From assembly GCA_965204725.1 (NCBI GenBank), contig OZ242005.1, forward strand, positions 3,808,001 through 3,872,000: a stretch of DNA of 64,000 bases, in the 5' to 3' direction. The notes under the pieces are model-generated. The model saw only the letters and a list, made by a program, of their open reading frames with translations. It did not search any database and was not told the DNA's origin. Shown piece after piece: positions 8,466 through 50,414 of this stretch. A program made the position numbers and the translations under genes. Within the stretch, counting starts at the first letter, position 1. Each line of letters opens with the position of its first letter. Origin of the DNA: Candidatus Latescibacterota bacterium. GTDB lineage: Bacteria; Latescibacterota; UBA2968; UBA8231.

Positions 8466-9695
8466 TTAGTCCTCAGCGGCTGCGCACTTGAGCAAGAGGG
8501 CGTGGCCCATCTTGTCGCGCTTGGTTGTTAGGTAGCGGATATTGTGCGGGTTGGGAGCGGCCTCAATAGGCACTTGCTCAACGACGGTTAGGCCGTAGGC
8601 CTCCAAGCCGACCCGCTTCTTGGGATTGTTGGTCAAAAAGCGCACTCGGCGCAATCCTAGATCGTAGAGCACTTGGGCACCAATGCCGTAGTCGCGCGAG
8701 TCCATGGGGTGGCCGAGGGCGTGGTTGGCCTCAATGGTGTCGAGCCCCTGTTGCTGTTGCAACTCATAAGCCTTGAGCTTGTGCAAAATGCCGATGCCGC
8801 GCCCTTCGTGGTGCTGGATATAGACGATGACGCCGCGTCCCTCGGCCGCAATGAGTTGCATGGATTGCGTGAGCTGTTCGCCGCAGTCGCATAGCAGTGA
8901 GCCGAGCGCGTCGCCCGTCAGACAACCGGAGTGCATGCGGACCAAGGTGTCGCGGCCATCGGCGACCTCGCCGTACACGAAAGCAAGGTACGGGTTGTCG
9001 TCCACCAAGCTGCGGTACGCATAGGCCGTGAATTCGCCGTAGCGGGTTGGCATGGGCGACTGAGCCTCTAGATGGATCAGTTTCTCGGTGCGGCGGCGAT
9101 GGGCAATGAGGTCGTGGATGGTGGTAATTTTGCAGCCGTGTTCGCGGGCGAAGCCGAGCAAGTAGGATGCGTCGGCCAGTGCCCCGGCTTCGTCGAGGAT
9201 GGCGGCGATCAAGGCCACGGGCTGGCAATCGGCCATCTGGGCCAAATCAACCGCGGCTTCAGTGTGCCCGGCGCGGCGCAACACCCCGCCCGGTTGGGCT
9301 TGGAGCGGCGTGACGTGCCCCGGCTGGACGAAGTCTTCGGGGACGCTGTTGGGATCGGCTAGTTTGCGAATAGTCGTAGCGCGGTCCTGAGCCGAAACGC
9401 CGGTGCCCTCCATGGCGCGGGCATTGACCGAGACCATGATCGAGGCGTCTAGAGGCTCGTGGGCCTTGGAGACCTGTAGGTGTAGTTCGAGGGCTTTGAG
9501 ATGCTCCCTAGCGGCGGCGACTACGGGCGGGCTGCTAGCACAGCGCGTCATGAAGTTGACTGAGGTGGCAGTGGCCCGCTCGGCGAGCATTACCAGTACG
9601 CCCTCGCCCACGGCTTCGCACTCGTCAACGAGCACGACCATGCGGCCGTTTTGCAGGTCTTCGACCACCTCTTCAATGGTATTGAAATCGAGCAT
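8466..9695 (-). CDS. ribBA: Bifunctional DHBP synthase / GTP cyclohydrolase II (DHBP domain degenerate)
   Basis: PGHV, RAGHTEA; RMHSGCLTGD, CDC, EGRGIG, RDYGIGAQ, LTNNPKK. Confidence 0.92.
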   Translation of the reverse strand: MLDFNTIEEVVEDLQNGRMVVLVDECEAVGEGVLVMLAERATATSVNFMTRCASSPPVVAAAREHLKALELHLQVSKAHEPLDASIMVSVNARAMEGTGVSAQDRATTIRKLADPNSVPEDFVQPGHVTPLQAQPGGVLRRAGHTEAAVDLAQMADCQPVALIAAILDEAGALADASYLLGFAREHGCKITTIHDLIAHRRRTEKLIHLEAQSPMPTRYGEFTAYAYRSLVDDNPYLAFVYGEVADGRDTLVRMHSGCLTGDALGSLLCDCGEQLTQSMQLIAAEGRGVIVYIQHHEGRGIGILHKLKAYELQQQQGLDTIEANHALGHPMDSRDYGIGAQVLYDLGLRRVRFLTNNPKKRVGLEAYGLTVVEQVPIEAAPNPHNIRYLTTKRDKMGHALLLKCAAAED

Positions 9696-17878: not shown

Positions 17879-20437
17879 GTGTCGCGTATTAAGATTCCAG
17901 TGAACAAACGCACTTGTCGGGCCTTGTCGGTCTTGTTGTCGCTGTTGCTCGCCGCGGCGACGTTTGCCGACGAGGTTGATTGGCCGTACTACGGGGCCGA
18001 TTGGGGCGGCACCCGCTACACTCCGGCGGACCAAATCCACCGCGACAACTTCGATCAGTTGCGCGTGGTCTGGCACTATCGGCCTCGCGATCAGCAGATC
18101 TCGAGACAGCTAGAGCGAGGTGGTCGTTCTCGCCTCCGTTTCAGCAATAACCGGGGTACGCCACTCGCCGTGAATGGGGTGCTCTACTATGGATCGCCCT
18201 TCAACATCCTCTCGGCCATTGACGGCCAAAGCGGCGAGGAGTTGTGGGCTTTCGACCCGGAGGCTTGGCAGAATCGTTCTAGGTTTTTCGGCCGTTCGCG
18301 CGGGGTGAGCTATTGGACTGATGGTGAGGTTCCCCGACCGTACTCCCCCCGCCGCAGACGAAGTTCAGTACGTCCGCCAGCAGCCCGGCCTCGACGAAAG
18401 GTTGAGCGGATCTTTCTGGCTACTTCGACCGCTCATCTGTACTCCATAGACGCCAAGACCGGCATCCCGGACCCAAATTTTGGCGAGGGCGGGCGCGTCG
18501 ATTTGGGGGCCTCGTTGCGTCGGCCACTGAGCGACAGGGATCGCAGGGGCTACGGGGTTACCGCCCCGCCCGTGGTGTGCCGAGACGTGGTCGCCGTTGG
18601 CTCGGCGATCATGAGCGGATGGCTGCAAGATCACGGTGCTCGCCAGATCACCCCCGGCGATGTGCAAGCCTTCGATGTGCGTACCGGCGAGAAGGTGTGG
18701 GAGTTTCACACGATCCCGCAGGAGGGCGAGTACGGCAACGAGACGTGGGAAAACGAGGCGTGGAAGACCTACGGCGCAGCCAATGTCTGGGCGACGATGA
18801 CCGCCGACGAGGAGTTGGGGTATCTCTACCTGCCGGTGAGCACGGCCAGCCACGACTACTACGGCGGCGAGCGTCCCGGCGACAACCTGTTCAGCGAGTC
18901 GGTGGTCTGTCTAGAGGCCGAGACCGGCGAGCGGGTGTGGCACTATCAGTTGGTTCATCACGGTCTGTGGAACTATGACCCGCCAGCGGCCCCCCTGCTG
19001 TTGGACGTGGTCATCAATGGCCAAGCGCGCAAAATTGTCGCCCAGCTTACCAAACAGGCTTTCTGCTTCGTCTTTGACCGCGTCACTGGCGAGCCGATCT
19101 GGCCGATTGTCGAAAAGCCGGTTCCGCAGTCACAGGTAGCGGGGGAACAGACCTCGCCGACGCAGCCTTTTCCGACCAAACCAGCGGCCTTCGAGCGTCA
19201 AGGCATAAGCGAGGCCGACCTGATCGACTTCACGCCTGAGTTGCGCGAGGAAGCTAAGGCCATTCTCGCTAAATACGACTACGGCCCGCTCTACACGCCG
19301 CCGACCGAGAAGGGCGTCTTGTTGGTTCCTAGCCCAGATGGCGGTGCCGATTGGGCAGGCGGCGCGGCCGACCCGCGCACGGGTGTGCTCTATGTGCCGT
19401 CGCACCGTGTCGTCCACAACTTGGTGCTGTGGCCGGTGCGCGACCCGGACGCTTATTCGGCGTTTTCTGCCAGTGCCAGTTGGCGCATCCTCGGCCCTCG
19501 GGGTTTGCCGCTGGTCAAGCCGCCCTACGGCAGCATCACGGCCATTGACCTCAACAGCGGGGAGCATATATGGCGGACGACGGTGGGCAAAGGTCCGGTC
19601 GATCACCCGGCCCTCAAGGACCTCGACCTGCCGGATATGGGCTGGGGCAACCGCACCTTCGTCTTGGCCACGCCGAACCTCCTGTTGGCCACTTCGCAGG
19701 GCCCGCACGGCCTCGCTGATGCTGGCGAGGATTACTTCGTCGATCGCGATGCGTATCTGCGGGCGTACGATTTGGCGTCCGGTGCGGAGATAGGCCGCGT
19801 CGAACTGCCCAGCAACGCCTATGGTGCGCCGATGAGCTATACGGCCGGCGGTCGTCAGTACGTAGTCGTGCCGCTGGGCAACTCTCTAGGCGAGTTCGGT
19901 CGTCCGCCTGAATTGGTCGCCTTGGCCATTCCACGCGATGGCGAGGAACTGCCGCCTCAAGGCCGAGACCGCGGCGACGCTGACCACAAAGCCTATTACG
20001 AGGCGGTAGAAGCCCTTGATGCTGGCGACGTTGAGACCCTTCAGAAGTTGCTCGCCGAGTACCCCGAGCTAACGACGGCTCGCGGCTACTTCGACGAGTA
20101 TTACGAATACCCGTACTTTCGCGGTGCCACGCTCTTGCACCATCTGGCTGGCGAACCACAGCGAGTACCGCTGCCCGCAAACGCGGTTGAACTAGCCGCG
20201 GCTCTGCTCTCAGCCGGTGCCGATCCCAACGCCGCCACTCTTGATTCGGTCGCCGTGCTGGATTTGGTGATGAGAAGTGCCCAGCTTGAATGGGCCAAGA
20301 GCAAGTCCGAAATGGTCCAGCTCTTAGTCTCAGAGGGCGTGGATTTAGATTACTTGGATATGGATACCTCTAAGGCCCTTGACGAGTTGCTCAGAGCGCA
20401 CCATGAAGCCGCCGGAGGGCAGGCGGATGCAGACTAG
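17879..20437 (+). CDS. PQQ-dependent (glucose/quinate-type) dehydrogenase with C-terminal ankyrin-like domain
   Basis: DWPYYG, GTPL, WEFHTIP, GAANVW, GDNLFSES, WHYQLVHHGLWNYD, PTQPFP, KPPYG; C-terminal GATLLHH...LLSAGADPNA. Confidence 0.88.
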   Translation: MSRIKIPVNKRTCRALSVLLSLLLAAATFADEVDWPYYGADWGGTRYTPADQIHRDNFDQLRVVWHYRPRDQQISRQLERGGRSRLRFSNNRGTPLAVNGVLYYGSPFNILSAIDGQSGEELWAFDPEAWQNRSRFFGRSRGVSYWTDGEVPRPYSPRRRRSSVRPPAARPRRKVERIFLATSTAHLYSIDAKTGIPDPNFGEGGRVDLGASLRRPLSDRDRRGYGVTAPPVVCRDVVAVGSAIMSGWLQDHGARQITPGDVQAFDVRTGEKVWEFHTIPQEGEYGNETWENEAWKTYGAANVWATMTADEELGYLYLPVSTASHDYYGGERPGDNLFSESVVCLEAETGERVWHYQLVHHGLWNYDPPAAPLLLDVVINGQARKIVAQLTKQAFCFVFDRVTGEPIWPIVEKPVPQSQVAGEQTSPTQPFPTKPAAFERQGISEADLIDFTPELREEAKAILAKYDYGPLYTPPTEKGVLLVPSPDGGADWAGGAADPRTGVLYVPSHRVVHNLVLWPVRDPDAYSAFSASASWRILGPRGLPLVKPPYGSITAIDLNSGEHIWRTTVGKGPVDHPALKDLDLPDMGWGNRTFVLATPNLLLATSQGPHGLADAGEDYFVDRDAYLRAYDLASGAEIGRVELPSNAYGAPMSYTAGGRQYVVVPLGNSLGEFGRPPELVALAIPRDGEELPPQGRDRGDADHKAYYEAVEALDAGDVETLQKLLAEYPELTTARGYFDEYYEYPYFRGATLLHHLAGEPQRVPLPANAVELAAALLSAGADPNAATLDSVAVLDLVMRSAQLEWAKSKSEMVQLLVSEGVDLDYLDMDTSKALDELLRAHHEAAGGQADAD

Positions 20438-39299: not shown

Positions 39300-40555
39300 T
39301 TGGGGTTTGGCGAAAATCCGCTACTCAAGGCAGTACAGGGCCGCGCAAACGGCGAAATTCGTTCAATCCCTCAGAGCGACAACACCCAACGTGCGATCCT
39401 TGAGCACGTCCCTAGCGGTTGCCGCGTCCGCTGTATCGCCAGCGACCCCCGGCGGGCGCACGGGTTGCGGCCAAGCCTTGTAATCGCGGACGAACCGGCC
39501 CAATGACCGCAATCGACTGCGGACGCCGTGTATGCCGCTCTGAGTACGGCGTTGGGCAAGGTCCCTAACTCAAGGCTCGTGGCTATTGGCACACGTAGCG
39601 CGGATAGCGGCCATTGGTTTGAACGGCTATTGAAGGACGCCGACTTCTCGCTGTGCCATGCAGCGGACGCCGAAGATGACCCCTTTGACGAATCGACGTG
39701 GCTAAAGGCATGTCCTCAGTTGAAACGCTTGCCCCATCTACTCAAGGCGTTCCGGGAGGAAGCACGAGCGGCCCAACGTGATCCGGCCTTGCTTGCCCAA
39801 TTCAAGGCGTTGCGCTTGAACATGGGCGTCAGCGACGTGGTCGTCCTCTACTTGGTAACTCCTGACGAATGGTTGGCCGTAGAGGACGAAGTAACGACAA
39901 GCGCGAACAAGACCGGCCCTTGTGTTTGGGGCATTGACTTAGGGGCAACTGCGGCAATGAGCGCCGTTGCCGCATACTACCCGGAAACGGGGCGCATGGA
40001 CGCCATCGCAGCATTCCCCAATGACCCGCCGTTGGGCGTCCGGGAGCGTTTCGATGGCGTAAAACCGGGCTTGTATCAGAATATGGCGGATCGCGCCGAA
40101 TTGCTCCTGTTGGGTGACAAGGTGGTTCCGGTTGGGCAACTACTGAACGCCGCGCAACAGCGGTTGGGCTACCCGGACGCCATCGCTTGCGATAGATGGC
40201 GGTTGGGCGAACTAGAGGACGCTATGACGGACGCCGCACTCCTTGCCCCCGTCCAAGCGCGGGGCATGGGCTTTAGGGATGGGAGCGAAGACGTGCGCTT
40301 GTTCAAGACGGCCCTACTATGAAGGGCGCGTAACCCCCGTCCGCTCGCTCCTGCTGCGTTCCGCAGTTTCAGAAACAACGGCTCGTGCAAGACCCGGCGG
40401 GCAATGCGAAGATCGCAAAAAGCGGCGAGGGTGCTAGACGGCGCTATGGCCGCGACGACCCGGCCGTAGCCGGTGTGCTTGCTGTTGCCCTCGCTGAACG
40501 AATGCCGAAGAAGGTGGCCGTAGCGTTTGACCATATTCCGCTTGACCAGCTTTGA
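39300..40555 (+). pseudogene. Phage terminase large subunit, N-terminally truncated, with nonsense codon and frameshifts
   Basis: AHGLRPSLVIADEPAQ*(TGA 39504-39506), then in-frame ...GIDLG..., CDRWR; frameshifts near 40320 and 40390 lead to DPAGNAKI...GRDDPAVA. Confidence 0.8.
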
Positions 40556-40759
40556 CATCACAGAGGACAAACTCTATGGTCTTGCGCGCCCCGGCCTCAT
40601 TGAAGAGACGCCCTTTGACGGGTTGGCGTCAATCCTGTATGCTGGTCGTGCGCCCCGGCCTCATTGAAGGAAGGAAGGGAAGGCCGCCGAACCAACGATA
40701 ACTAGAGTTATCGTTGGTTACAGCACTTCGACACCACAGAGTTTGTCCTCTATGGTGTC
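40554..40759. repeat. Pair of inverted 30-bp palindromic sites (12-bp arms, 6-bp spacer)
   Basis: GACATCACAGAG-GACAAA-CTCTATGGTCTT (40554-40583) and GACACCACAGAG-TTTGTC-CTCTATGGTGTC (40730-40759). Confidence 0.8.
40577..40669 (+). CRISPR. Putative degenerate CRISPR mini-array (two partial repeats, one ~37-bp spacer)
   Basis: Exact 20-nt GCGCCCCGGCCTCATTGAAG at 40586 and 40650; 3' end resembles type I-G(I-U) repeats; no cas genes in window. Confidence 0.5.
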
Positions 40760-40878
40760 CACCTTGACGCCCCAAAGGGCGATTAACAAGCTGCTGTCCG
40801 CTCCCTACCCTATCAGTCTCATACCCTTCGGCGCACTCAAGGCGGGTGCGCCATTAACCCAAACAAGGAGATACTCCT

Positions 40879-41712
40879 ATGTTTAAGTCTTTCAAAAACC
40901 TACTTGGCCTCAGCCTGCTGGCTTTCTTCGGCGTGTGGATGGGGTGCTCGTCCGAATCCTCGCCCGTCAGCCCTTCAAACAAGGCCGTGACGGACGATGA
41001 CGGATCAGCAACACAAGTATCGACGTTTACTGTTTCGACCGAGGTTTCCATTCCCGACGACAGTCTAAGGGTAGCGGTTACTCAAGGACTCTGGGCTTTG
41101 GTGGCAGAAGGGAAACTCGACATTCCTACGGGGTCAAACCCGCTTACAACGGCAAACCTTGCAAAGCTAGAAACGCTTTCCGCTGGCAGCAAAGGGATTG
41201 CGAATTTGAGCGGCCTTGAGCACGCTACCGACTTGAAAAGCCTGAACCTAAACGGGAACAACGTTGAGGACCTAGCGCCTTTGGCCAATCTGACCAAGTT
41301 GGAATATCTGAACTTGGAAAATAATCTCATTCCCCAAACGGGTTATTCTCATTTGGCTAATCTGACCAAGTTGACAAATCTTAGGATAGGCGGCCACAGA
41401 AACGCCGACATTGGCAGCGACACCCTAGAGGTGGTGGTTGAGAACATGACCAAGTTGACCGCTCTAAAGGTGAACCACATGGGGCTTACGGATATTTCTT
41501 TTTTGGAAAAGGAAAATCTGAAAGAGTTGCGATACTTAAACCTAAATGGCAACCGGGAGATTACGAATCTCAAACCGCTTGCTTGTCTGCCGAATCTGAA
41601 CGATTTGCGCGTAGAGAGGGTTGGTGCTGCTTACAACACCGTTACCGGCGAGGTAAATAAACTTCTCCTATTCTTGATAGGGGAAGGGGTATATGTAGAT
41701 TACATTACTTAG
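40879..41712 (+). CDS. Internalin-like leucine-rich-repeat lipoprotein (phage cargo)
   Basis: AAGGAG RBS, lipobox WMGC, IPDDSLR cap, L..L..L.L..N repeats; lower GC. Confidence 0.85.
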   Translation: MFKSFKNLLGLSLLAFFGVWMGCSSESSPVSPSNKAVTDDDGSATQVSTFTVSTEVSIPDDSLRVAVTQGLWALVAEGKLDIPTGSNPLTTANLAKLETLSAGSKGIANLSGLEHATDLKSLNLNGNNVEDLAPLANLTKLEYLNLENNLIPQTGYSHLANLTKLTNLRIGGHRNADIGSDTLEVVVENMTKLTALKVNHMGLTDISFLEKENLKELRYLNLNGNREITNLKPLACLPNLNDLRVERVGAAYNTVTGEVNKLLLFLIGEGVYVDYIT

Positions 41713-42042
41713 CCCCATGCAGTAGATCGTCCTCTACGCAGAGGACGCCCAACGCCCCGTTGCCGCTTGCCGGTGACGGGGCGTTGCTATGCCGCTCCAA
41801 TACGCCGCTCGTTGGCGTCCGCGCACGATAGACCATTGACCGCCCCCGGCGCACGGGCGATATTGGCAATCCTGTCCTTGAGAGAGACAGGTAGCGCGGC
41901 GCGGCTGACCTACCGGCAGAGTAAACCGGGCGCACGGAAAGTGAAGGGCGGCGTTGGTTGGGCCGATTGCGTAAGCGCGGCCACCGGGTCTAACATCCCC
42001 GGCTTCTTGGGCCAACGCCGCTTTTTTATGCCTTGCCCCGTC

Positions 42043-42759: not shown

Positions 42760-44013
42760 ATGACCAACTCCCAAAAACTGGCACTTCGGTTAAGCGAGGT
42801 TCGCCAGAAACTCAACGAGCTGCTCGCAATCGACAACCCGAATGACGAGCAGAGGGCCGAACTTGCTCAACTGAGCGGCGAATATCCGGGGCTTGAAACC
42901 CAGTATAGGGCCGCAGTAATCGCGGAAAGCGAAGAAAGCGAAACCCGCACAATCGACGACGACGCCCAAAGCGCGGAATACCGGCAGCTGGTGGACCGGG
43001 TAGAGTTGGGCGCGTATCTCATTGAAGCGGCAACGGGGCGTCCGGTGGACGGGGCCGAACAAGAGTTGCGCGCCGAAGTGTTTGGCGACGACGCCCGACA
43101 GAACCTAGTACCGTGGGAAGCGTTGCTACCCCGTGACGAGGACGAAGATCGCGCCGACAGCCCCGTCAATATCGGCAGCACTTCGGGCGTTGGCGTCAAT
43201 CAGCAAACCATCTTGGCGCGTGTGTTCGCGGATACGGCGGCCATGTTCGCGGGCGTTACTATGCCCAACGTGGGCATTGGGGATGCGTCTTACCCGGTAT
43301 TCGAGGACGGCGCAACCGCCGAATTGACCGCCAAAGGGACGGCCAAAGACGCCGAGGCCGCGACGATTACGGCTAAGGTGCTCAATCCAACTCGCTTGAC
43401 CGCTCGCTACGTCCTCAGAGTAGAGGACGCAAACAGGCTAATGGGCTTAGAAGAAAGCCTACGTGCCGACTTGCGCGGCACGTTGGGCGAACAACTGGAC
43501 AAGCAGATAATCGCTGGGGATGGAACCAGCCCGAACTTCGCGGGGTTTTTCGACGATGGGGCGTCCATTTCTTCGGCTACGGCCCCGACCGCGCAATCCA
43601 AGTACGAGGACGTTGCCGTCCTCGCGGCCAATGCCATTGACGGCAAGTACTGCCGGTCCGCAATGGGCGCGCGGTTGCTTTTCAATGTTACGGGCATACA
43701 GCGGGCGTCCGCGCTATTCCTAACCAACGGCGGGTATTCGGCAGCGGACTATTTGGCCGAACATTCGGGCGGTATCATGGCGTCCGCACACGCCCCGGTG
43801 AAAGCGAGCAAGAAAAGCAAAATCCTGACCTACCGAATGGACCGGGGCGCGGGGAGTGCGGTGTGTCCGGTGTGGCAAGGTCTTGAGATTATCCGAGACC
43901 AATTCAGCGGCGCAATGCGCGGCGAAATCGCCTTGACCGCCATAGCCCTACATTCGTTTGCGATCTTGCGGACCGACGCCTACTACATCCAAGAAATCCA
44001 AGAGGACGCCTAG
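42760..44013 (+). CDS. Phage major capsid protein (HK97-like, with N-terminal scaffold region)
   Basis: Coiled-coil N-terminus, LDKQIIAGDG..PNFAG, EIIRDQFS..MRGEIALTA; context of HNH and protease. Confidence 0.75.
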   Translation: MTNSQKLALRLSEVRQKLNELLAIDNPNDEQRAELAQLSGEYPGLETQYRAAVIAESEESETRTIDDDAQSAEYRQLVDRVELGAYLIEAATGRPVDGAEQELRAEVFGDDARQNLVPWEALLPRDEDEDRADSPVNIGSTSGVGVNQQTILARVFADTAAMFAGVTMPNVGIGDASYPVFEDGATAELTAKGTAKDAEAATITAKVLNPTRLTARYVLRVEDANRLMGLEESLRADLRGTLGEQLDKQIIAGDGTSPNFAGFFDDGASISSATAPTAQSKYEDVAVLAANAIDGKYCRSAMGARLLFNVTGIQRASALFLTNGGYSAADYLAEHSGGIMASAHAPVKASKKSKILTYRMDRGAGSAVCPVWQGLEIIRDQFSGAMRGEIALTAIALHSFAILRTDAYYIQEIQEDA

Positions 44014-44594: not shown

Positions 44595-45542
44595 ATGCGG
44601 CGATTTGCAATCGCAGGGGTTTTCAGCCTCGCCCTCGTGGGGGCGGCGAATGCCCAGTTTTTCGATCCGCCGGCCCTCGAGGATCGCAACGGCAGTCAGG
44701 GATTTTGGTTTTACATGCTCGAAGTCCCCGACCCTGGGGCCATCACCATCGATGCCCAGAGCGACGACTGGGCTTGGTTCGACCCGGAGTACACCCTGAC
44801 CATGGACGAGTGGCGCGACGAAGGCGACCGCCCGGCCCCCGACCGCGACGACCTGTTCATCACCACCTTCATGGGCTGGAAGGGCGGCGACGACAACCGC
44901 TGGTACTGCTTTTTGGAAGCGGTTGACGACGTGCTGGCACACGCCGGCACCAATATCGCCCGCTGGGACGGCGACATGCTACAAGTCGGCCTCGATCCGC
45001 AGGATCACGGCCGCGAGCGCAGCCCGGCTTCGGGCTACACCATGGAGTGGCTGATGGCGCCGGGCGACCTCAGCCCGCCGACCAACGTCGCTTTCCGCTA
45101 CACCGAGCAAGAGGCGTGGGCCGAGTACGGCGAATCGCCGTGGATTGAAATGGCCGTGCGCGTCGATCCGCCCGAAGCGTGGGCGGCCGACCTGTGGGCC
45201 GAGGGCGGCACCACGTACTACGAGTGGAGCGTCAAGGTCCTCGCCTTCCAAGAGGACGCCGGCCCATCGGCAAGTGAGGAGTGGCAGCTCGACGCAGTCG
45301 CTGGTGAAGAGGGCACGGGCCTGCCTTTCGCCATGTGGTACGAAGACGGCGAAGGGCCGGATTCGAGCTTCTCGCCCAACGACGACGGCACCCCGGGTGG
45401 CCGCAACGACTGGACTACTCGCGGGCCTGAAGCCTCGGCTCGGCAGTACTACTCCATTGCCAAGCTGCTGCGAGTCGGCGAGTACACCAGTGCCACATCG
45501 GTCGAAGCATCGACTTGGGGCAAGATCAAGGACTCGTTCTAA
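44595..45542 (+). CDS. Secreted protein, CBM9-like fold, with C-terminal TSVEASTWGKIK motif
   Basis: AAGGAG RBS, signal peptide, ITIDAQSDDW, acidic and Trp-rich. Confidence 0.7.
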   Translation: MRRFAIAGVFSLALVGAANAQFFDPPALEDRNGSQGFWFYMLEVPDPGAITIDAQSDDWAWFDPEYTLTMDEWRDEGDRPAPDRDDLFITTFMGWKGGDDNRWYCFLEAVDDVLAHAGTNIARWDGDMLQVGLDPQDHGRERSPASGYTMEWLMAPGDLSPPTNVAFRYTEQEAWAEYGESPWIEMAVRVDPPEAWAADLWAEGGTTYYEWSVKVLAFQEDAGPSASEEWQLDAVAGEEGTGLPFAMWYEDGEGPDSSFSPNDDGTPGGRNDWTTRGPEASARQYYSIAKLLRVGEYTSATSVEASTWGKIKDSF

Positions 45543-45609
45543 GCAACAAGCACCGCAACACGCAAGAAGCACTCTTAAAATCCCTTTTGAGAACGCTTCG
45601 CAAGAATCC

Positions 45610-45649
45610 GTCGGGCCAATTAGAACCTTAATTGGCCTGACTTCTTTTT
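45610..45649 (+). terminator. Intrinsic terminator after first gene of the secreted cluster
   Basis: GTCGGGCCAATTA-loop-TAATTGGCCTGAC followed by TTCTTTTT. Confidence 0.75.
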
Positions 45650-45661
45650 AGGGGGTGCATC

Positions 45662-46378
45662 GTGCATAAACGGCTCTGGGCTTGGTCCTTCCTGTTGATC
45701 CCGTTGGTGGGGGCTTGCGGTCGCTACTTTCACACGCCGCTTCAGCCGGCCAGCCGCCAAGCCGAGGGCATGACCATCAACGACGACGGCTCCATCGCCT
45801 ACGCCCTCGACCGCTTGTCGATAGAGCTCAAGCCCATGACGGACGCGGAATTAAACCGCCTCGCGCCCGGGCCCGACCCGTCGGTCAACCCCTATACCTT
45901 TGGCGAGTGGACTGCCCCGGGCGACACGTGGACGCCGCCGCGCTTTACCGTCTTTCGGCTCAAGGTCAGCAACTATCAATTTCCCAAGGTCGAGATCGAC
46001 CCGCTCAAGGCGCGGATTAGCGCGGCCAACACCCGGCAGTATCAGGTGCTGAGCTACGCCCAATTATACCACTATTTTCGCTCGTATTGGCTGGGCCGCA
46101 CCGGCCAAGGGCGCAAGACCTTTCAGGCCCGCACGGATGCACTCAAGCGGACGCTGTACAGCGGGACCTTAGTTTTCAGCGGCAGCGAAGAACAAGGGTA
46201 TTTGGTCTTTCCCCGCCTCGCCGACGATGTGCGGGCGATCCAAGTACACCTCGAGGACATCGTCTTGCGCTTCGACTATGCGGACGAGCCGGTAGAGGCG
46301 ATTGACCTGAGCTTCTCCTTCCAGCGCGACATCCTGCAAGGGTACGACCCCTCGGCCGCAGTGCGGATCAACCGATGA
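45662..46378 (+). CDS. Hypothetical lipoprotein
   Basis: Lipobox VGAC; stop overlaps next start. Confidence 0.7.
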   Translation: MHKRLWAWSFLLIPLVGACGRYFHTPLQPASRQAEGMTINDDGSIAYALDRLSIELKPMTDAELNRLAPGPDPSVNPYTFGEWTAPGDTWTPPRFTVFRLKVSNYQFPKVEIDPLKARISAANTRQYQVLSYAQLYHYFRSYWLGRTGQGRKTFQARTDALKRTLYSGTLVFSGSEEQGYLVFPRLADDVRAIQVHLEDIVLRFDYADEPVEAIDLSFSFQRDILQGYDPSAAVRINR

Positions 46379-48363
46379 CCGCCTCTGCGCCCAGAGCCGT
46401 CGTCGGCACGGTCCTAGCGGTGCTTGGCGGACTCGTGCCGAGCGGTGCTCAAGTCGAGGTGTGGCACATCGGCAAGGGGGGGCTTTCGTGGGCCTCGCAG
46501 GCCCAAACGCAGATCGGCGCCTTGGACGTCGCTGGCGGCCTACAGCCCTTGCGGCTCCAAGCCGGAGAAAACCTCATCGAGCTGCTCCGCGCTTCGGGCC
46601 AACGCTTTCTCAACGGTCAACCCCGCGACTTCACACTCGGCGGCCAGCCGCGGGCGTGGTCCAACGATGGCTTCTTCAATCAGGTGGCGGGTTCCCTCGA
46701 CCTGATTGACGGCGATCCAACGACCTCCTCATCGGGCGTGTTCAAAACCGCCCAAAGCCAAGCCGGGGCGACCTTCTTCTGGGATTTGGGCGCGCCCTTC
46801 CCGGTCAACCGCATTCGCTTCTTTCCCGCTCCCGACGATGACGCCTTTGTCAAAGCCTTTGAGCTGCGGGTCAACGACGGCGAAACCTTCAACGACATCA
46901 ACCGACCGCAATACGAACTCTTGCGGCGGGTTGATGTCAACCGCGAATCCATCGTAGATATTGAATTTGCTCCCTTGCAGGGCCGCTTCCTCCGGCTGCT
47001 CGTGCTGTCGAAGACGGCGTTCAACATCGCGGAGTTTGAAATCTATGGGCAGGGCTTTGTGCCGGTCGCTAGCTACGAGTCCGCGCTGCACTCCTTTGGC
47101 GGCCCGGTCAACTACGGCCGCTTGCGCATCTACGCGACAAAACTCGGCACGACCGGGGCCGCGACCGCGGCGATTCAGATGCGGACCGGGGCCGACGACA
47201 GCCCGCTGGCGTACTTTCGCCGCGACCGCGACACGGGCCGCCAGCAGGAGGTGCCAGCAGCCGAATACAACACCCGCCTGCCGCGGCGCACCCTGTTCCG
47301 CCAAGACCCGGTCACCGGCGAGCTATTAGAGGAACTAGACCGGGCCGACTATCTCAACCTGCCGGTCGAGGAGCAAGGGCCGGTGCGCGACTTCGTCAAG
47401 GGCGACATCCGCGACGATGTAGCCAACTGGAGCGCGTGGTCGCCGAGTACGCCCATCGCCGGCACGGGCGCGATCTCCGTGCCCATAGAGTTGCCCAGCC
47501 CGCGGGAGTTCATGCAGTTCCGCATCCTATTCGATGGCGACGCTGAAAACGCCGTGCGGATCGACACCTTTCAGGTGGAGTTTTCGCCCGGGCTCGTCGG
47601 CCAAGCGGTCGGCGAGGTCGCGCTCGCCACCGATCCCTTTCCCGCCCGCGGCCTGCTCCAAGTCGAAGGCGGGATCGACACGACCTTTACCTACGACATC
47701 CGCACCGAGTTCGCCGCGGACGCCGTGGGGTATCGCGGCGTCCGCATTGAGGCGTTTCCACCGCCGGTGTTCGAGAGCCTGCACATGGGCGAGCCTCTCG
47801 CGGCCATAGAAGACGTTGCGTGGGCGGCAACCGCCAGCGGCTTCGACGTGTTCTTCGCGCCCATTGCCGCCGACAACAACCAGCCCCTGCGGATAACCTT
47901 CCGCCTGCGGCTTTTGGAGCACAATACTCCGATCAACGCCTATCTGCTCGGGGCGGAGGGCGTCCCACCGCATCCCATTGCCCCGGGCAATGCCAGCCCG
48001 TTGGCGGGCACAGACGCGACCAACGCCTTTGCGACTCAGGCGCGGCCCGAATTGCAACTAGCCCTTTCAGCGGCCATTATCTCGCCCAATGGGGATGGCC
48101 GCAACGATGCAGTCGCCATTGATCTCGTGTTGTCCCAGTTTGCCGCCGCTACCGCAGTGACCGTCGAGATCTTCGACCTCAGCGGCCGGCGGGTGCGCCA
48201 GCTCGTCTCCGAGCTGCGCCCGGCCGGCTTTTACGCGGAAATCTGGGATGGTCGCGACGAACAGGGCGCGTTGGTCTGCCCGGGCCTGTACTTGTGCCGC
48301 GTCGGCGTGGAGGCCGATTTCGACGTGTTTGCCGCTGTAGAGCCTATTGGGGTGGTCTATTGA
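46375..48363 (+). CDS. Secreted protein with discoidin-like domain and C-terminal SPNGDG/FlgD Ig-like domain (paralog 1)
   Basis: WDLGAPFPVNRIRFFP, IAEFEIYG, WSAWS, ISPNGDG.ND, WDGRD..G...PGLY. Confidence 0.75.
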   Translation: MTASAPRAVVGTVLAVLGGLVPSGAQVEVWHIGKGGLSWASQAQTQIGALDVAGGLQPLRLQAGENLIELLRASGQRFLNGQPRDFTLGGQPRAWSNDGFFNQVAGSLDLIDGDPTTSSSGVFKTAQSQAGATFFWDLGAPFPVNRIRFFPAPDDDAFVKAFELRVNDGETFNDINRPQYELLRRVDVNRESIVDIEFAPLQGRFLRLLVLSKTAFNIAEFEIYGQGFVPVASYESALHSFGGPVNYGRLRIYATKLGTTGAATAAIQMRTGADDSPLAYFRRDRDTGRQQEVPAAEYNTRLPRRTLFRQDPVTGELLEELDRADYLNLPVEEQGPVRDFVKGDIRDDVANWSAWSPSTPIAGTGAISVPIELPSPREFMQFRILFDGDAENAVRIDTFQVEFSPGLVGQAVGEVALATDPFPARGLLQVEGGIDTTFTYDIRTEFAADAVGYRGVRIEAFPPPVFESLHMGEPLAAIEDVAWAATASGFDVFFAPIAADNNQPLRITFRLRLLEHNTPINAYLLGAEGVPPHPIAPGNASPLAGTDATNAFATQARPELQLALSAAIISPNGDGRNDAVAIDLVLSQFAAATAVTVEIFDLSGRRVRQLVSELRPAGFYAEIWDGRDEQGALVCPGLYLCRVGVEADFDVFAAVEPIGVVY

Positions 48364-48377
48364 CCGCTCCGATCAAC

Positions 48378-50414
48378 ATGCGGTGGCTGGTGCTGGTCCT
48401 CGCCCTCAGCGGCCGGGTGGTCGCACAACCGCCCTCGGCTTGGGTCGTGGGCGCGAGCGGCGAGCCGTGGGCCGGGGCCGTAGAACGCTGGATCGCCCTA
48501 GACGACTCCGCGCGCACCGGATCGATTCAGCCGCGGGCCATTCCGCTGGGCCATTCCGTGACGCGCCAACTCGTGCGCACCGGCATTGCCACGACGCAGC
48601 GCAACCTGTTTGGCTATCGCTGGAGCTTGTACAAGGGGCCGCGCCAAATTGAGGCCGACACCTTAGAGGTCGGGTGGCATCCGCGCCTGTGGCTGGGGGG
48701 CGGCACCAATGCCAACGCCCCGGAGGTCATGCGCGGGCTCGTCGACGGCGATGTGCTCACCGCGAGCTTTACCCACCGGGCGCGGGCCGATGGCCGCCCC
48801 AACAGCGTACAGTTCATCACGCTGGACCTCGGCGTCCCCGTGCCGGTAGATAGCATCGTGTTCTTTCCGCCGCAGACCGGGCTGACCAGCGACAACCAGC
48901 GGCAGCGCGAGTTGTTCGCCCGCGCTTATGAGGTCAGCCGGACCAACGTGCCGGTCGAATGGCTGATCTTTGAGGACGAGACCGCATCGACCGGGTCGGC
49001 GGGGTATCACCCCCTCGACGAGGTTCTCGCCAGCACCTTTGCCAACAACACGAGCGTCGTCTCCCTCGCCACCGAGCTGCGCTTTACCCGCTTTCTCCGC
49101 TTCAAGTTCGGGGAAGTCTCCACCACTACCTTGCTCGCCGAAATCGAGGTCTTTGGCCGCGGCTACCCCCAAGAGGCCCGCTACCTCTCCGCGCCCCATT
49201 CTTTCGGCCAAGCCGTGAGCTTTGGGCGGGTCTGGTGGAAATTCACCCGCTATCGCCAATTGCCTTCCGGCGCGGTCACCGCCGACCCCACCGCCCCCGT
49301 CGCGCTAAACGTGCAGACCCGCGCTGGCTTCGACGCCGACCCGAAGACGTACTTCATTTTCGACGACCTCGGCCGGCTGGTGGAAGTCGATGAGAAGACC
49401 TATTTCGCCGCGCCGCGCGTGGTAGAACGGTTTTCCGAGGGGATCGCCGGCTTCCGGGCCAAGCGCGACGACGACGTGGAGAATTGGAACAACTGGTCGG
49501 TCGCCTACCAAGCGTCGGGCGACGAGATCCGCTCCTCGGACGGCGCCGAATTTCTCCAGTTTCGCTTTGTCATCACCACCGAAGACCCGCTGGCCTTTGG
49601 CGTCCTCGACAGCTTGGCTTTTGAGGTCTCGCCCCTGTTGGCCGACCGCGCCTTAGCGGAAATTGCCCTCGACGGACGCGCCGCAACCAACGGCGTTGTC
49701 GAGGTGCCCCTCGGAGTCGTCGAACGCTTTGCCTATCACATTCGCACGGTGGCCGGCCCAACCGAGCGCAGCGGCTTCGACGGCATCGAGTTGGAGGTTC
49801 CGCCAGCCGCGCGCTTCCTCGACCTAACCATCGACGACCAGCCGGCGACCGAGGGCGTGGATTTTTCCCTCGCCGCCCACGACGGGCGTTTGCGCTTCAC
49901 CTTTCCCGCCCCGTTCCGCCAAGACAAGGCGTTTCGCGTGCGCTTTCAAGGCGCGGTCTTTCAGCCGTCGGTCTTTTTGGCCAGCCGCCTTTTTAACACC
50001 TTGGCGGCGGGCTTGCCCCAGTCCGTTGAGGCCGGCGATGCCAACGCCGACGTGGGTAGCAACAGCATCCAAGTCGTCTCCAGCGATGCGGCGCTGGGCA
50101 TTCTCGGGGCGATTGAGTTGTCGGCCCCGGTGGTCACGCCCAACGGCGATGGGACCAACGAGCGGGTCGCGATTGAATTCGATTTGTTCGGCGTCGCCGG
50201 GGGCGCGTTGCGAGTAGAGGTGCGCGACTTGAGCGGCCAGCACCGCGCCGCGATCTTGGCCGCGCCGGCCACAGCCGGGCCGTACGCGCTGCGGTGGGAT
50301 GCGCGGGACGAGCACGGGCAACTCGTCCCCCCAGGGCTGTACCTAATCCGCGTTGAGGTCGAAGTGGATCGCGGCGCGTTCGCCCGCCTAGCCGCGCTCG
50401 GCGTCGCATACTAA
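48378..50414 (+). CDS. Secreted FlgD-tail protein (paralog 2)
   Basis: LDLGVPVPVDSIVFFP, LAEIEVFG.GY, WNNWS, TPNGDG, WDARD..G..VPPGLY; start at MRWLV. Confidence 0.75.
   Translation: MRWLVLVLALSGRVVAQPPSAWVVGASGEPWAGAVERWIALDDSARTGSIQPRAIPLGHSVTRQLVRTGIATTQRNLFGYRWSLYKGPRQIEADTLEVGWHPRLWLGGGTNANAPEVMRGLVDGDVLTASFTHRARADGRPNSVQFITLDLGVPVPVDSIVFFPPQTGLTSDNQRQRELFARAYEVSRTNVPVEWLIFEDETASTGSAGYHPLDEVLASTFANNTSVVSLATELRFTRFLRFKFGEVSTTTLLAEIEVFGRGYPQEARYLSAPHSFGQAVSFGRVWWKFTRYRQLPSGAVTADPTAPVALNVQTRAGFDADPKTYFIFDDLGRLVEVDEKTYFAAPRVVERFSEGIAGFRAKRDDDVENWNNWSVAYQASGDEIRSSDGAEFLQFRFVITTEDPLAFGVLDSLAFEVSPLLADRALAEIALDGRAATNGVVEVPLGVVERFAYHIRTVAGPTERSGFDGIELEVPPAARFLDLTIDDQPATEGVDFSLAAHDGRLRFTFPAPFRQDKAFRVRFQGAVFQPSVFLASRLFNTLAAGLPQSVEAGDANADVGSNSIQVVSSDAALGILGAIELSAPVVTPNGDGTNERVAIEFDLFGVAGGALRVEVRDLSGQHRAAILAAPATAGPYALRWDARDEHGQLVPPGLYLIRVEVEVDRGAFARLAALGVAY

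Follow-up and report, generated by a model that had tools for sequence, protein, structure and literature searches.

A degenerate type I-G CRISPR-repeat cassette in a decayed phage remnant, most likely a leftover RNA decoy or guide for a system since lost by its bacterial host

A 64,000-nucleotide stretch of DNA from Candidatus Latescibacterota bacterium (assembly GCA_965204725.1, contig OZ242005.1, positions 3,808,001 to 3,872,000 of the forward strand), which we call the window and whose numbering we use throughout, contains a phage remnant that carries a short cassette built around two partial copies of a clustered regularly interspaced short palindromic repeat (CRISPR). Both copies match the 3ʹ part of the type I-G repeat used by relatives of this bacterium, and the cassette is an insertion between a broken terminase gene fragment and a lipoprotein-like gene. 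The host genome retains little more of a type I-G system than the first part of one cas gene. The most likely interpretation is that the cassette is the leftover of a phage RNA that served as a decoy or guide for a type I-G system since lost by the host.

A tandem pair of repeat-like units in a phage remnant

The sequence GCGCCCCGGCCTCATTGAAG occurs twice on the + strand of the window, at 40586-40605 and at 40650-40669, with starts that are 64 nt apart. The motif TGGTC precedes both 20-mers, at 40577-40581 (followed by 4 nt) for copy 1 and at 40643-40647 (followed by 2 nt) for copy 2, and a gap of 37 nt (40606-40642) extends from the end of copy 1 to the second TGGTC. A preliminary description of this DNA had reported such a pair with a spacer of about 37 nt, and its positions proved to be exact. 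When up to three mismatches to the 20-mer are allowed, the window holds these two matches compared with 0.02 expected by chance, and none of 100 shuffled sequences held two or more. No other exact copies exist in the 5.43-Mb genome.

We compared the stretch with contigs from four public sequencing runs (X1, X3, X4 and X7). The X1 (933 nt) and X3 (599 nt) contigs, from runs of different studies, carry it with zero differences, so that an assembly error in one data set does not explain the cassette. The X4 and X7 contigs do not cover 40592-40675. A single low-depth joint in X7, which links 40536 to 40698 and has 39 nt on one side, might represent another organism or a paralogue, and we draw no inference from it. 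The possibility that the pair is a coding repeat was rejected because the 64-nt offset is not a multiple of 3, which would place the copies in different reading frames.

The cassette and its parts are listed here, with promoter-like sites given as -35 box, spacing and -10 box, followed by their match to the 12-position consensus.

40540-40737, + strand: the cassette, 198 bp, an insertion relative to the paralogous junction of terminase and leucine-rich repeat (LRR) genes in the same genome
40552-40580, + strand: promoter-like site P1 (TTGACA, 17 nt, TATGGT; 10/12)
40554-40580: left arm of an inverted repeat, 27 nt, itself a near-palindrome, overlapping P1
40577-40605, + strand: pseudo-repeat copy 1 (TGGTC, 4 nt, 20-nt core), the 3ʹ half of a type I-G repeat and free of any hairpin
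40606-40642, + strand: spacer-like segment of 37 nt, with the palindrome TTGACG-6 nt-CGTCAA plus P2
40615-40643, + strand: promoter-like site P2 (TTGACG, 17 nt, TATGCT; 9/12), within the spacer-like segment
40637-40669, + strand: pseudo-repeat copy 2, nearly full length, with a weak stem of 4-5 bp and the same 20-nt core
40670-40689, + strand: purine-rich tract GAAGGAAGGGAAGG..., 3ʹ of copy 2
40690-40719, + strand: perfect 14-bp hairpin with a 2-nt gap (-20.3 kcal/mol, z -7.8; stability equalled by none of 200 shuffled sequences)
40728-40756, + strand: promoter-like site P3 (TCGACA, 17 nt, TATGGT; 9/12), directed toward the LRR gene
40733-40759: right arm of the inverted repeat, overlapping P3, a hairpin already present in the terminase-LRR paralogue

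A scan for the sigma-70-type consensus recovered these three + strand sites within 205 bp, compared with 0.5 expected in the 1.2-kb region scanned. The -10 box of P1 ends 6 nt upstream of the first 20-mer and that of P2 ends 7 nt upstream of the second, and therefore transcription is predicted to begin where the conserved part begins. Judging from tRNA genes, promoters of this type are used in this genome: a score of at least 9/12 is reached by 17 of 48 tRNA upstream regions, by 1 of the 48 antisense controls and by 33 of 2000 120-mers of random sequence. The arms of the inverted repeat are complementary at 24 of 27 positions with 152 nt between them, a value that was reached in none of 20 shuffles (best, 21).

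The insertion is evident from a second terminase-LRR junction in the same genome. Positions 39766-40539 of the window align to C1:4095001-4094230 (85% identity), and positions 40738-41785 align to C1:4094228-4093187 (78% identity). Because the two flanks are adjacent in this paralogue (C1:4093187-4095001), the cassette between them is an insertion relative to that copy. The 27-nt inverted repeat delimits this insertion, whose ends can equally be taken for a direct duplication of 31 nt that has an inverted loop.

Four genes define the surroundings of the cassette.

39528-40549, + strand: fragment of a terminase large-subunit gene, nuclease domain only, with a stop at 40320-40322
40879-41712, + strand: LRR lipoprotein-like gene (Pfam LRR_4), with 4 paralogues in the genome
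42393-42755, + strand: HNH endonuclease gene (Pfam and PHROG scans)
42760-44013, + strand: major capsid gene (Pfam and PHROG scans)

The terminase fragment matches Pfam TerL_nuclease and positions 337-590 of the 812 in the PHROG 9 profile, and its homology to the paralogue extends up to 40539. None of the scanned open reading frames (ORFs) could be recognised as a tail, portal or integrase gene. With its terminase fragment, HNH gene and capsid gene, the locus is therefore a decayed phage remnant, as the preliminary description had proposed from the letters. That description had also portrayed the mini-array as lacking cas genes, and none were found alongside it.

Comparisons of the cassette and its neighbours with other mobile elements yielded little. 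Searches of 50,697 phage records and 72,556 plasmid records returned no match to the cassette. A search of IMG/VR with the terminase returned relatives at 28-34% identity only, none of which were of use, and the capsid protein has no match in four viral records that bear I-G-like repeats. Similarity between the cassette and the upstream region of a third LRR paralogue is not significant (59 of 300 shuffles were equally good), and with the fourth paralogue the common part is the 17-nt repeat core only.

Two further features of the window lie nearby. The 72- and 84-nt direct repeats at 41280-41459 are coding LRR units inside the LRR gene and are not CRISPR-like. Past the capsid gene, positions 44622-49978 hold five ORFs, one of which has C-terminal domains of the type IX secretion system (T9SS) type, with zero PHROG matches. 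This block is paralogous (66-70%) to C1:2864509-2869813 and may lie outside the phage remnant.

Derivation from a type I-G repeat and decay of the host system

Both copies of the 20-mer are identical at 19 of 20 positions to the 3ʹ end of a 36-nt repeat, ATTTCCGGGGTGGAAACGCCCCGGCCTCATTGAAGC, from the arrays of two genomes of the same genus (G002 and G006). This end of the repeat, ...CCCCGGCCTCATTGAAG(C), is the source of the 5ʹ handle of the CRISPR RNA (crRNA), and it is present in both window copies. The G002 genome has an array of 6 repeats, and G006 has a 2-repeat mini-array as well as a long array, with a period of 72-75 nt. In these two genomes, which were annotated with NCBIfam models, the arrays adjoin genes for Cas3g, Cas8g2, Cas7g/Csb1, Csb2 and Cas4g/Cas1g.

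The distribution of the repeat is narrow. Its 15-mer core, CCGGCCTCATTGAAG, occurs in 18 of 31 genomes of the genus, ten of which have arrays of 6-90 copies and seven a single copy, whereas the present genome (G000) has three. Among 168 sampled genomes of the phylum, the 20-mer with at most one mismatch is present in 14. All of these belong to the same family, and none of the 92 genomes sampled from outside that family carry it. The exact variant of the 20-mer that begins with G is confined to this genome within the same sample. Furthermore, among Rfam families both copies score best with CRISPR-DR16, which has a consensus that ends in ...cCGGCCUCAUUGAAaC. Taken together, these sequence comparisons support the derivation of the cassette from the I-G repeat that this bacterial family uses. 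The earlier guess of a type I-G repeat, for which a comparison with repeats elsewhere in the genome had been suggested, was therefore right, given the match to same-genus repeats beside I-G cas genes and the restriction of all 14 carriers to a single family.

The copies are nonetheless degenerate relative to genuine repeats. We aligned 15 distinct genuine repeats to build a covariance model with a 6-bp stem, which gave the following scores.

Window copy 2: 14.4 bits, E 0.16, the top match in the window
Window copy 1: 10.5 bits, E 2.5
Genuine or solitary full repeats: 47-60 bits
Second, degenerate repeat in a mini-array within a cas locus: 41 bits
Viral pseudo-repeats: 18-32 bits
Two other stray fragments of this genome: 20-21 bits

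The 5ʹ half of the repeat is lost in both copies, and neither retains the 6-8 bp CCGGGG/CCCCGG stem of the full 36-nt repeat. The 5ʹ part of copy 2 (GGTCGT, 3 nt, CCCCGG) looks like the degenerate second repeat in the cas-locus mini-arrays of G006 and G002, which we regard as a resemblance and not as proof. An Rfam match to the lysine riboswitch (16 bits, with a gathering score of 30) was dismissed as noise.

A k-mer scan revealed no CRISPR array anywhere in the host genome. What persists is a decayed I-G locus at G000:C1:1208519-1212690 (L017 15529-19700), composed of a cas3g stump, a solitary repeat, a helicase gene and a pseudo-repeat. The stump consists of two ORFs that match positions 2-353 of the 854 in the NCBIfam Cas3g model, corresponding to the first ~350-400 residues. 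On its 3ʹ side lie a full solitary repeat (47.6 bits), then a gene for an 867-aa helicase that matches the candidate defence family PDC-S28, and then the terminal pseudo-repeat, whose flank, TAGGTCTGGCTATATTGGAGGCC, is also found behind solitary or terminal repeats in seven other genomes of the genus. Intact orthologues of the stump are present in three relatives (G019, G013 and G136), where they are 90-94% identical and form open frames of 823-831 aa; the Cas3g of G019, the closest of the relatives with an intact locus, stands at 94%. From the stump, the repeat remnants and these intact orthologues it follows that the lineage once had a type I-G system, most of which has been deleted. Thus, the host I-G locus for which the preliminary description had suggested a check is present as a remnant, but one reduced to the cas3g stump and solitary repeats. 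The accompanying proposal, a small RNA that co-opts or inhibits the Cascade complex of the host, is not supported for the present genome, in which no I-G effector genes were found apart from the stump.

Other repeat-derived sequences are scattered through this genome. A solitary repeat-like unit at G000:C1:2957770-2957802 (L018 7771-7803; 20.5 bits) has a perfect 12-nt handle end, and its stem shows a compensatory change from the G-C pair of the consensus to T-A. It is located 35 bp upstream of another LRR paralogue and is antisense to it, such that a repeat-derived unit lies within 250 bp upstream of 2 of the 4 LRR paralogues. A stray half repeat, CAACGACCCGGCCTCATTGAAGC, at G000:C1:824305-824330 (L019 5295-5330; 21.3 bits) ends a 77-aa ORF that has no Pfam match.

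The I-G cas loci of six relatives hold internal mini-arrays with degenerate repeats, at the following positions.

L010 1485-1592 (G006)
L011 1188-1297 (G002)
L031 1697-1807 (G014)
L169, reverse complement, ~9000-9090 (G013)
L032 (G042)
L030 (G044)

G006 and G002 share a nearly identical mini-array spacer, 13 nt of which match the inside of cas8g2 exactly in G006. We regard these mini-arrays as candidates for CreR/CreA-like regulators of subtype I-G. Separately, an array spacer of G014 matches paralogous genes for pyrroloquinoline quinone (PQQ)-dependent dehydrogenases at C1:4203838-4203870 and C1:4206936-4206968 (each 33 nt with 1 mismatch) and at 18295-18318 of the window (24/24). This is a target of chromosomal type and not an obvious mobile element.

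Searches for a spacer target and related arrangements in viruses

The spacer-like segment has no protospacer in its own genome, where a 13-nt match in an enolase-superfamily-like coding region (C1:2667888) is of a kind expected about four times by chance. No target was found in the 31 genomes of the genus (best, 26/37). Comparison with nine stretches, which comprise I-G loci from seven relatives as well as the I-G remnant of the host itself, yielded only chance-level runs of 11-12 nt, a test for regulator-type spacers that is incomplete because the cognate locus of the host is deleted. In the comparison with the spacer of the G006 cas-locus mini-array, 9 of 14 bases agree, non-contiguously, and 425 of 5000 shuffles equalled the global score.

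Larger collections were equally uninformative. In IMG/VR, whose size we estimate at ~10^11 bases from 91 matches of a 15-mer, a first search pattern gave 0 matches and a second gave a single viral family (6 contigs), in which 24 of 26 bases agree in the 3ʹ part of the spacer only and none in the seed, about the level expected by chance. The JGI metagenomes returned one unrelated match. The comparison of the spacer with viromes that the preliminary description had recommended thus produced no target beyond chance in IMG/VR, JGI metagenomes, or phage and plasmid records. Sampling of the viruses that belong to this host lineage is probably poor, which bears on the missing protospacer.

The repeat itself leads to some related viral arrangements. 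A search of IMG/VR with the 15-mer gave 91 single matches, about the number expected by chance, and 80 of these 91 loci were examined. Among them, L075/L077 display a degenerate repeat, a 37-nt spacer and an exact genus repeat, followed by what by eye looks like a terminator hairpin, and four others (L045, L048, L069 and L094) carry related repeat units. Complete phage genomes with terminal repeats stand behind L077 (G047, 39.4 kb) and L045 (G049, 39.5 kb). The mini-array of G047, at L077 561-689, is located in a genome with 60% G+C, like that of the host studied here, and its spacer has no match in 76 genomes of the bacterial family. Because the layout recurs in phages, an original role of the decoy type gains support. 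The G049 spacer is preceded by the 3ʹ half of a repeat and followed by the complementary 5ʹ half, and these halves could pair across it to form a split repeat.

A proposed orphaned decoy and its alternatives

We propose that the cassette once produced RNAs that competed with the crRNAs of a type I-G system. Each pseudo-repeat retains the 3ʹ 20 nt, the source of the crRNA handle, with a predicted sigma-70-type promoter that replaces or overlaps the 5ʹ half. The products would be one or two small RNAs that start with handle sequence. RNA 1 would comprise the handle, the 37-nt spacer and the weak hairpin of copy 2, and RNA 2 would comprise the handle, ~20 nt and the strong 14-bp hairpin. Where an I-G system is present, the backbone proteins Cas7g and Csb2 would take up these RNAs instead of real crRNAs. 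Their likeliest effect would be to act as a decoy and sequester Cascade components, in the manner of an RNA anti-CRISPR (Racr), and a guide function seems less likely. A decoy role suits the locus in that it needs no target and in that the handle is fused to a promoter. We assign a probability of roughly 0.5 to an original role as a Racr-type decoy that is now orphaned. The orphaning follows because the I-G system of the present genome has been deleted down to a stump, and the cassette is thus best regarded as an orphan, a fossil of phage-CRISPR conflict that is probably out of use. We infer transcription, loading into Cas proteins and inhibition, whereas the repeat homology, the architecture of the cassette, its insertion and the loss of cas genes are read directly from the genomes.

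Several observations weigh against this interpretation. The two copies score below the other pseudo-repeats we evaluated (18-41 bits), and with the CRISPR-DR16 model they reach 17.6 bits (copy 2) and 15.7 bits (copy 1), far from the gathering score of 35. A genuine repeat is predicted to fold into an 8-bp stem, whereas copy 2 forms a weak structure of 4-5 pairs and copy 1 forms none, and these poor hairpins weaken the case for a decoy. There are two copies only, and their 64-nt period differs from the 72-75 nt of real arrays. The fold of the entire predicted RNA is not significantly better than those of shuffled sequences (z -1.77). The hairpin at 40690-40719 has no T-run behind it and was not called as an intrinsic terminator, and without a terminator the promoters might just read on into the LRR gene. 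In addition, no match to the Cas1 family was found in the genome, which is estimated to be 94% complete, and tblastn searches that took nine G002 and G006 Cas proteins as queries recovered only the N-terminal part of cas3g (C1:1208519-1209609). Finally, 0 of 164 spacers from the arrays of relatives match the phage remnant, and so an attack on this phage by I-G systems is not indicated.

The same degeneracy could mean that the cassette never functioned as an RNA gene, and is instead a dead fragment, once part of an I-G array or of a mini-array from a cas locus, which reached the phage DNA by recombination or by stray spacer integration and later decayed. We consider this unlikely. In its favour, no other pseudo-repeat scored is as degenerate as these two copies, type I-G has been lost from the host, and the prophage around the cassette is broken and duplicated as a pseudogene block. 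Stray repeat fragments also occur elsewhere in the genome (at 824 kb and 2957 kb), and the 31-nt direct duplication of the target hairpin that flanks the cassette is what a one-off insertion might leave. However, no difference has arisen between the two 20-mers, compared with 15% between the terminase fragment and its paralogue, a good promoter match precedes both copies at the same register, and complete phage genomes show this layout again. Moreover, an I-G integrase that inserted a stray spacer would be expected to duplicate ~36 nt, whereas only 27-29 nt align here.

A somewhat less probable alternative is that the cassette encoded a true guide, either as a mini-array against a competing phage or through a partial match to the promoter of a cas or toxin gene, as in Cracr, CreR and CreA RNAs. 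Its 37-nt spacer has a normal length for I-G (34-44 nt in relatives) and lies between two pseudo-repeats, and degenerate repeats are typical of regulatory crRNA-like RNAs. The I-G loci of relatives hold such mini-arrays, one spacer of which is conserved in two species, and both viral mini-arrays against related viruses (PMC11656645) and viral Cracr RNAs (bioRxiv 10.1101/2024.10.29.618823) have been described. Against a guide stand the lack of a target beyond chance in all of the collections searched (the host genome, the 31 genus genomes, the I-G loci, IMG/VR and the JGI metagenomes) and the insignificant likeness to the G006 mini-array spacer (425/5000 shuffles). The spacer is also palindromic and has a promoter-like site inside it, which is unusual for a captured spacer.

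Least probable of all, in our estimation, is that this is an ordinary regulatory region in which tandem promoters and operators, or an invertible switch, drive the LRR gene and the likeness to CRISPR is secondary. Three co-oriented promoter-like sites do precede the LRR gene and no terminator separates them, the inverted repeat (24/27, with 152 nt between the arms) is non-random, the palindrome TTGACG-6 nt-CGTCAA resembles an operator, and a second LRR paralogue has a repeat-like unit 35 bp upstream. However, the match to a family-specific I-G repeat is far above chance and occurs twice, and LRR paralogues drive the same gene without this block. With regard to a switch, searches of the genome found no serine recombinase, all 3 of its tyrosine recombinases are distant from the window, and a single orientation was seen in contigs, which cannot show a minority form.

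A more ambitious version of the decoy proposal, which we regard as doubtful, holds that the cassette is a working I-G RNA anti-CRISPR of a new build, and that CRISPR-derived RNAs control genes for interaction with a host. The new build would have a promoter in place of the hairpin half of the repeat, and would yield two tandem, handle-first RNAs without Cas6-type processing. The idea of LRR control arises because repeat-derived units lie upstream of half of the LRR lipoprotein paralogues in a bacterium that is apparently sponge-associated. In Francisella, Cas9 together with the small CRISPR/Cas-associated RNA scaRNA is reported to repress a lipoprotein.

Mini-arrays on mobile elements, solitary repeat units and RNA anti-CRISPRs constitute a known class, and the cassette belongs to it. 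The closest parallel is with Racr and solitary repeat units (PMC10651486), which, in the account given there, are likewise intergenic repeat mimics in phage DNA with no adjoining cas genes, have a predicted promoter directly upstream and match the repeat family of the host lineage. The parallel has its limits, since the described Racr is a single unit and the cassette has two in tandem, in a phage element that has decayed. Candidates in the RNA anti-CRISPR screen were picked for their repeat-like structure (PMC10651486), whereas the hairpin half is mostly lost here, and the strong hairpin behind copy 2 is unrelated to that of the repeat. Moreover, the cognate Cas proteins were not found in the present host of the cassette, whose expression and inhibitory activity are predicted from sequence. 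The term ‘I-G’ is absent from the main text of Camara-Wilpert et al. 2023 (PMC10651486).

Mini-arrays of interviral conflict (PMC11656645) similarly place one spacer of normal length between two repeats on a cas-less mobile element. As portrayed in that paper, their repeats are identical to those of the host and most of their spacers match related viruses, whereas the cassette is degenerate and its target was not found. CreA and CreR mini-arrays (PMC10120712) and Cracr RNAs share with the cassette the order of degenerate pseudo-repeat, spacer and pseudo-repeat. Their hallmark, as set out in these sources, is a match to a cas or toxin promoter, or at least 9 bases of CreA or CreR spacer proximal to the protospacer-adjacent motif (PAM), neither of which was found for the cassette. 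Shmakov et al. 2023 (PMC10120712) report regulatory mini-arrays together with prophage copies, one of which is flanked by direct repeats as here, and tabulate 235 I-G loci, of which 4% have a mini-array. The viral Cracr candidates named by Liu et al. (bioRxiv 10.1101/2024.10.29.618823) belong to subtypes V-A, I-F, I-E, I-C and I-B, with none from I-G. Genuine I-G arrays of this bacterial family agree with the cassette in the 3ʹ 20 nt of the repeat and in spacer length. They differ from it in the CCGGGG/CCCCGG stem, the leader, the cas operon and the period of 72-75 nt, none of which are features of the two-copy cassette.

We found no description of a mobile-element mimic of I-G in the literature on Racr, mini-arrays and Cracr, supplements aside. 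In that literature, I-G mini-arrays appear only as a table row, in the Cracr survey (bioRxiv 10.1101/2024.10.29.618823) and in PMC10120712. If the cassette is only a relic, it is an ordinary footprint of a past conflict and holds little further interest. If the proposed origin is correct, it would extend the CRISPR mimics of mobile elements to subtype I-G. The genome offers a before-and-after snapshot, in which a phage-borne mimic and the stump of the host system persist together while sister species keep the system intact. The intact I-G loci of relatives (G019, G013 and G136) and the complete IMG/VR phages would provide material for asking whether handle-only RNAs can titrate a type I-G system.

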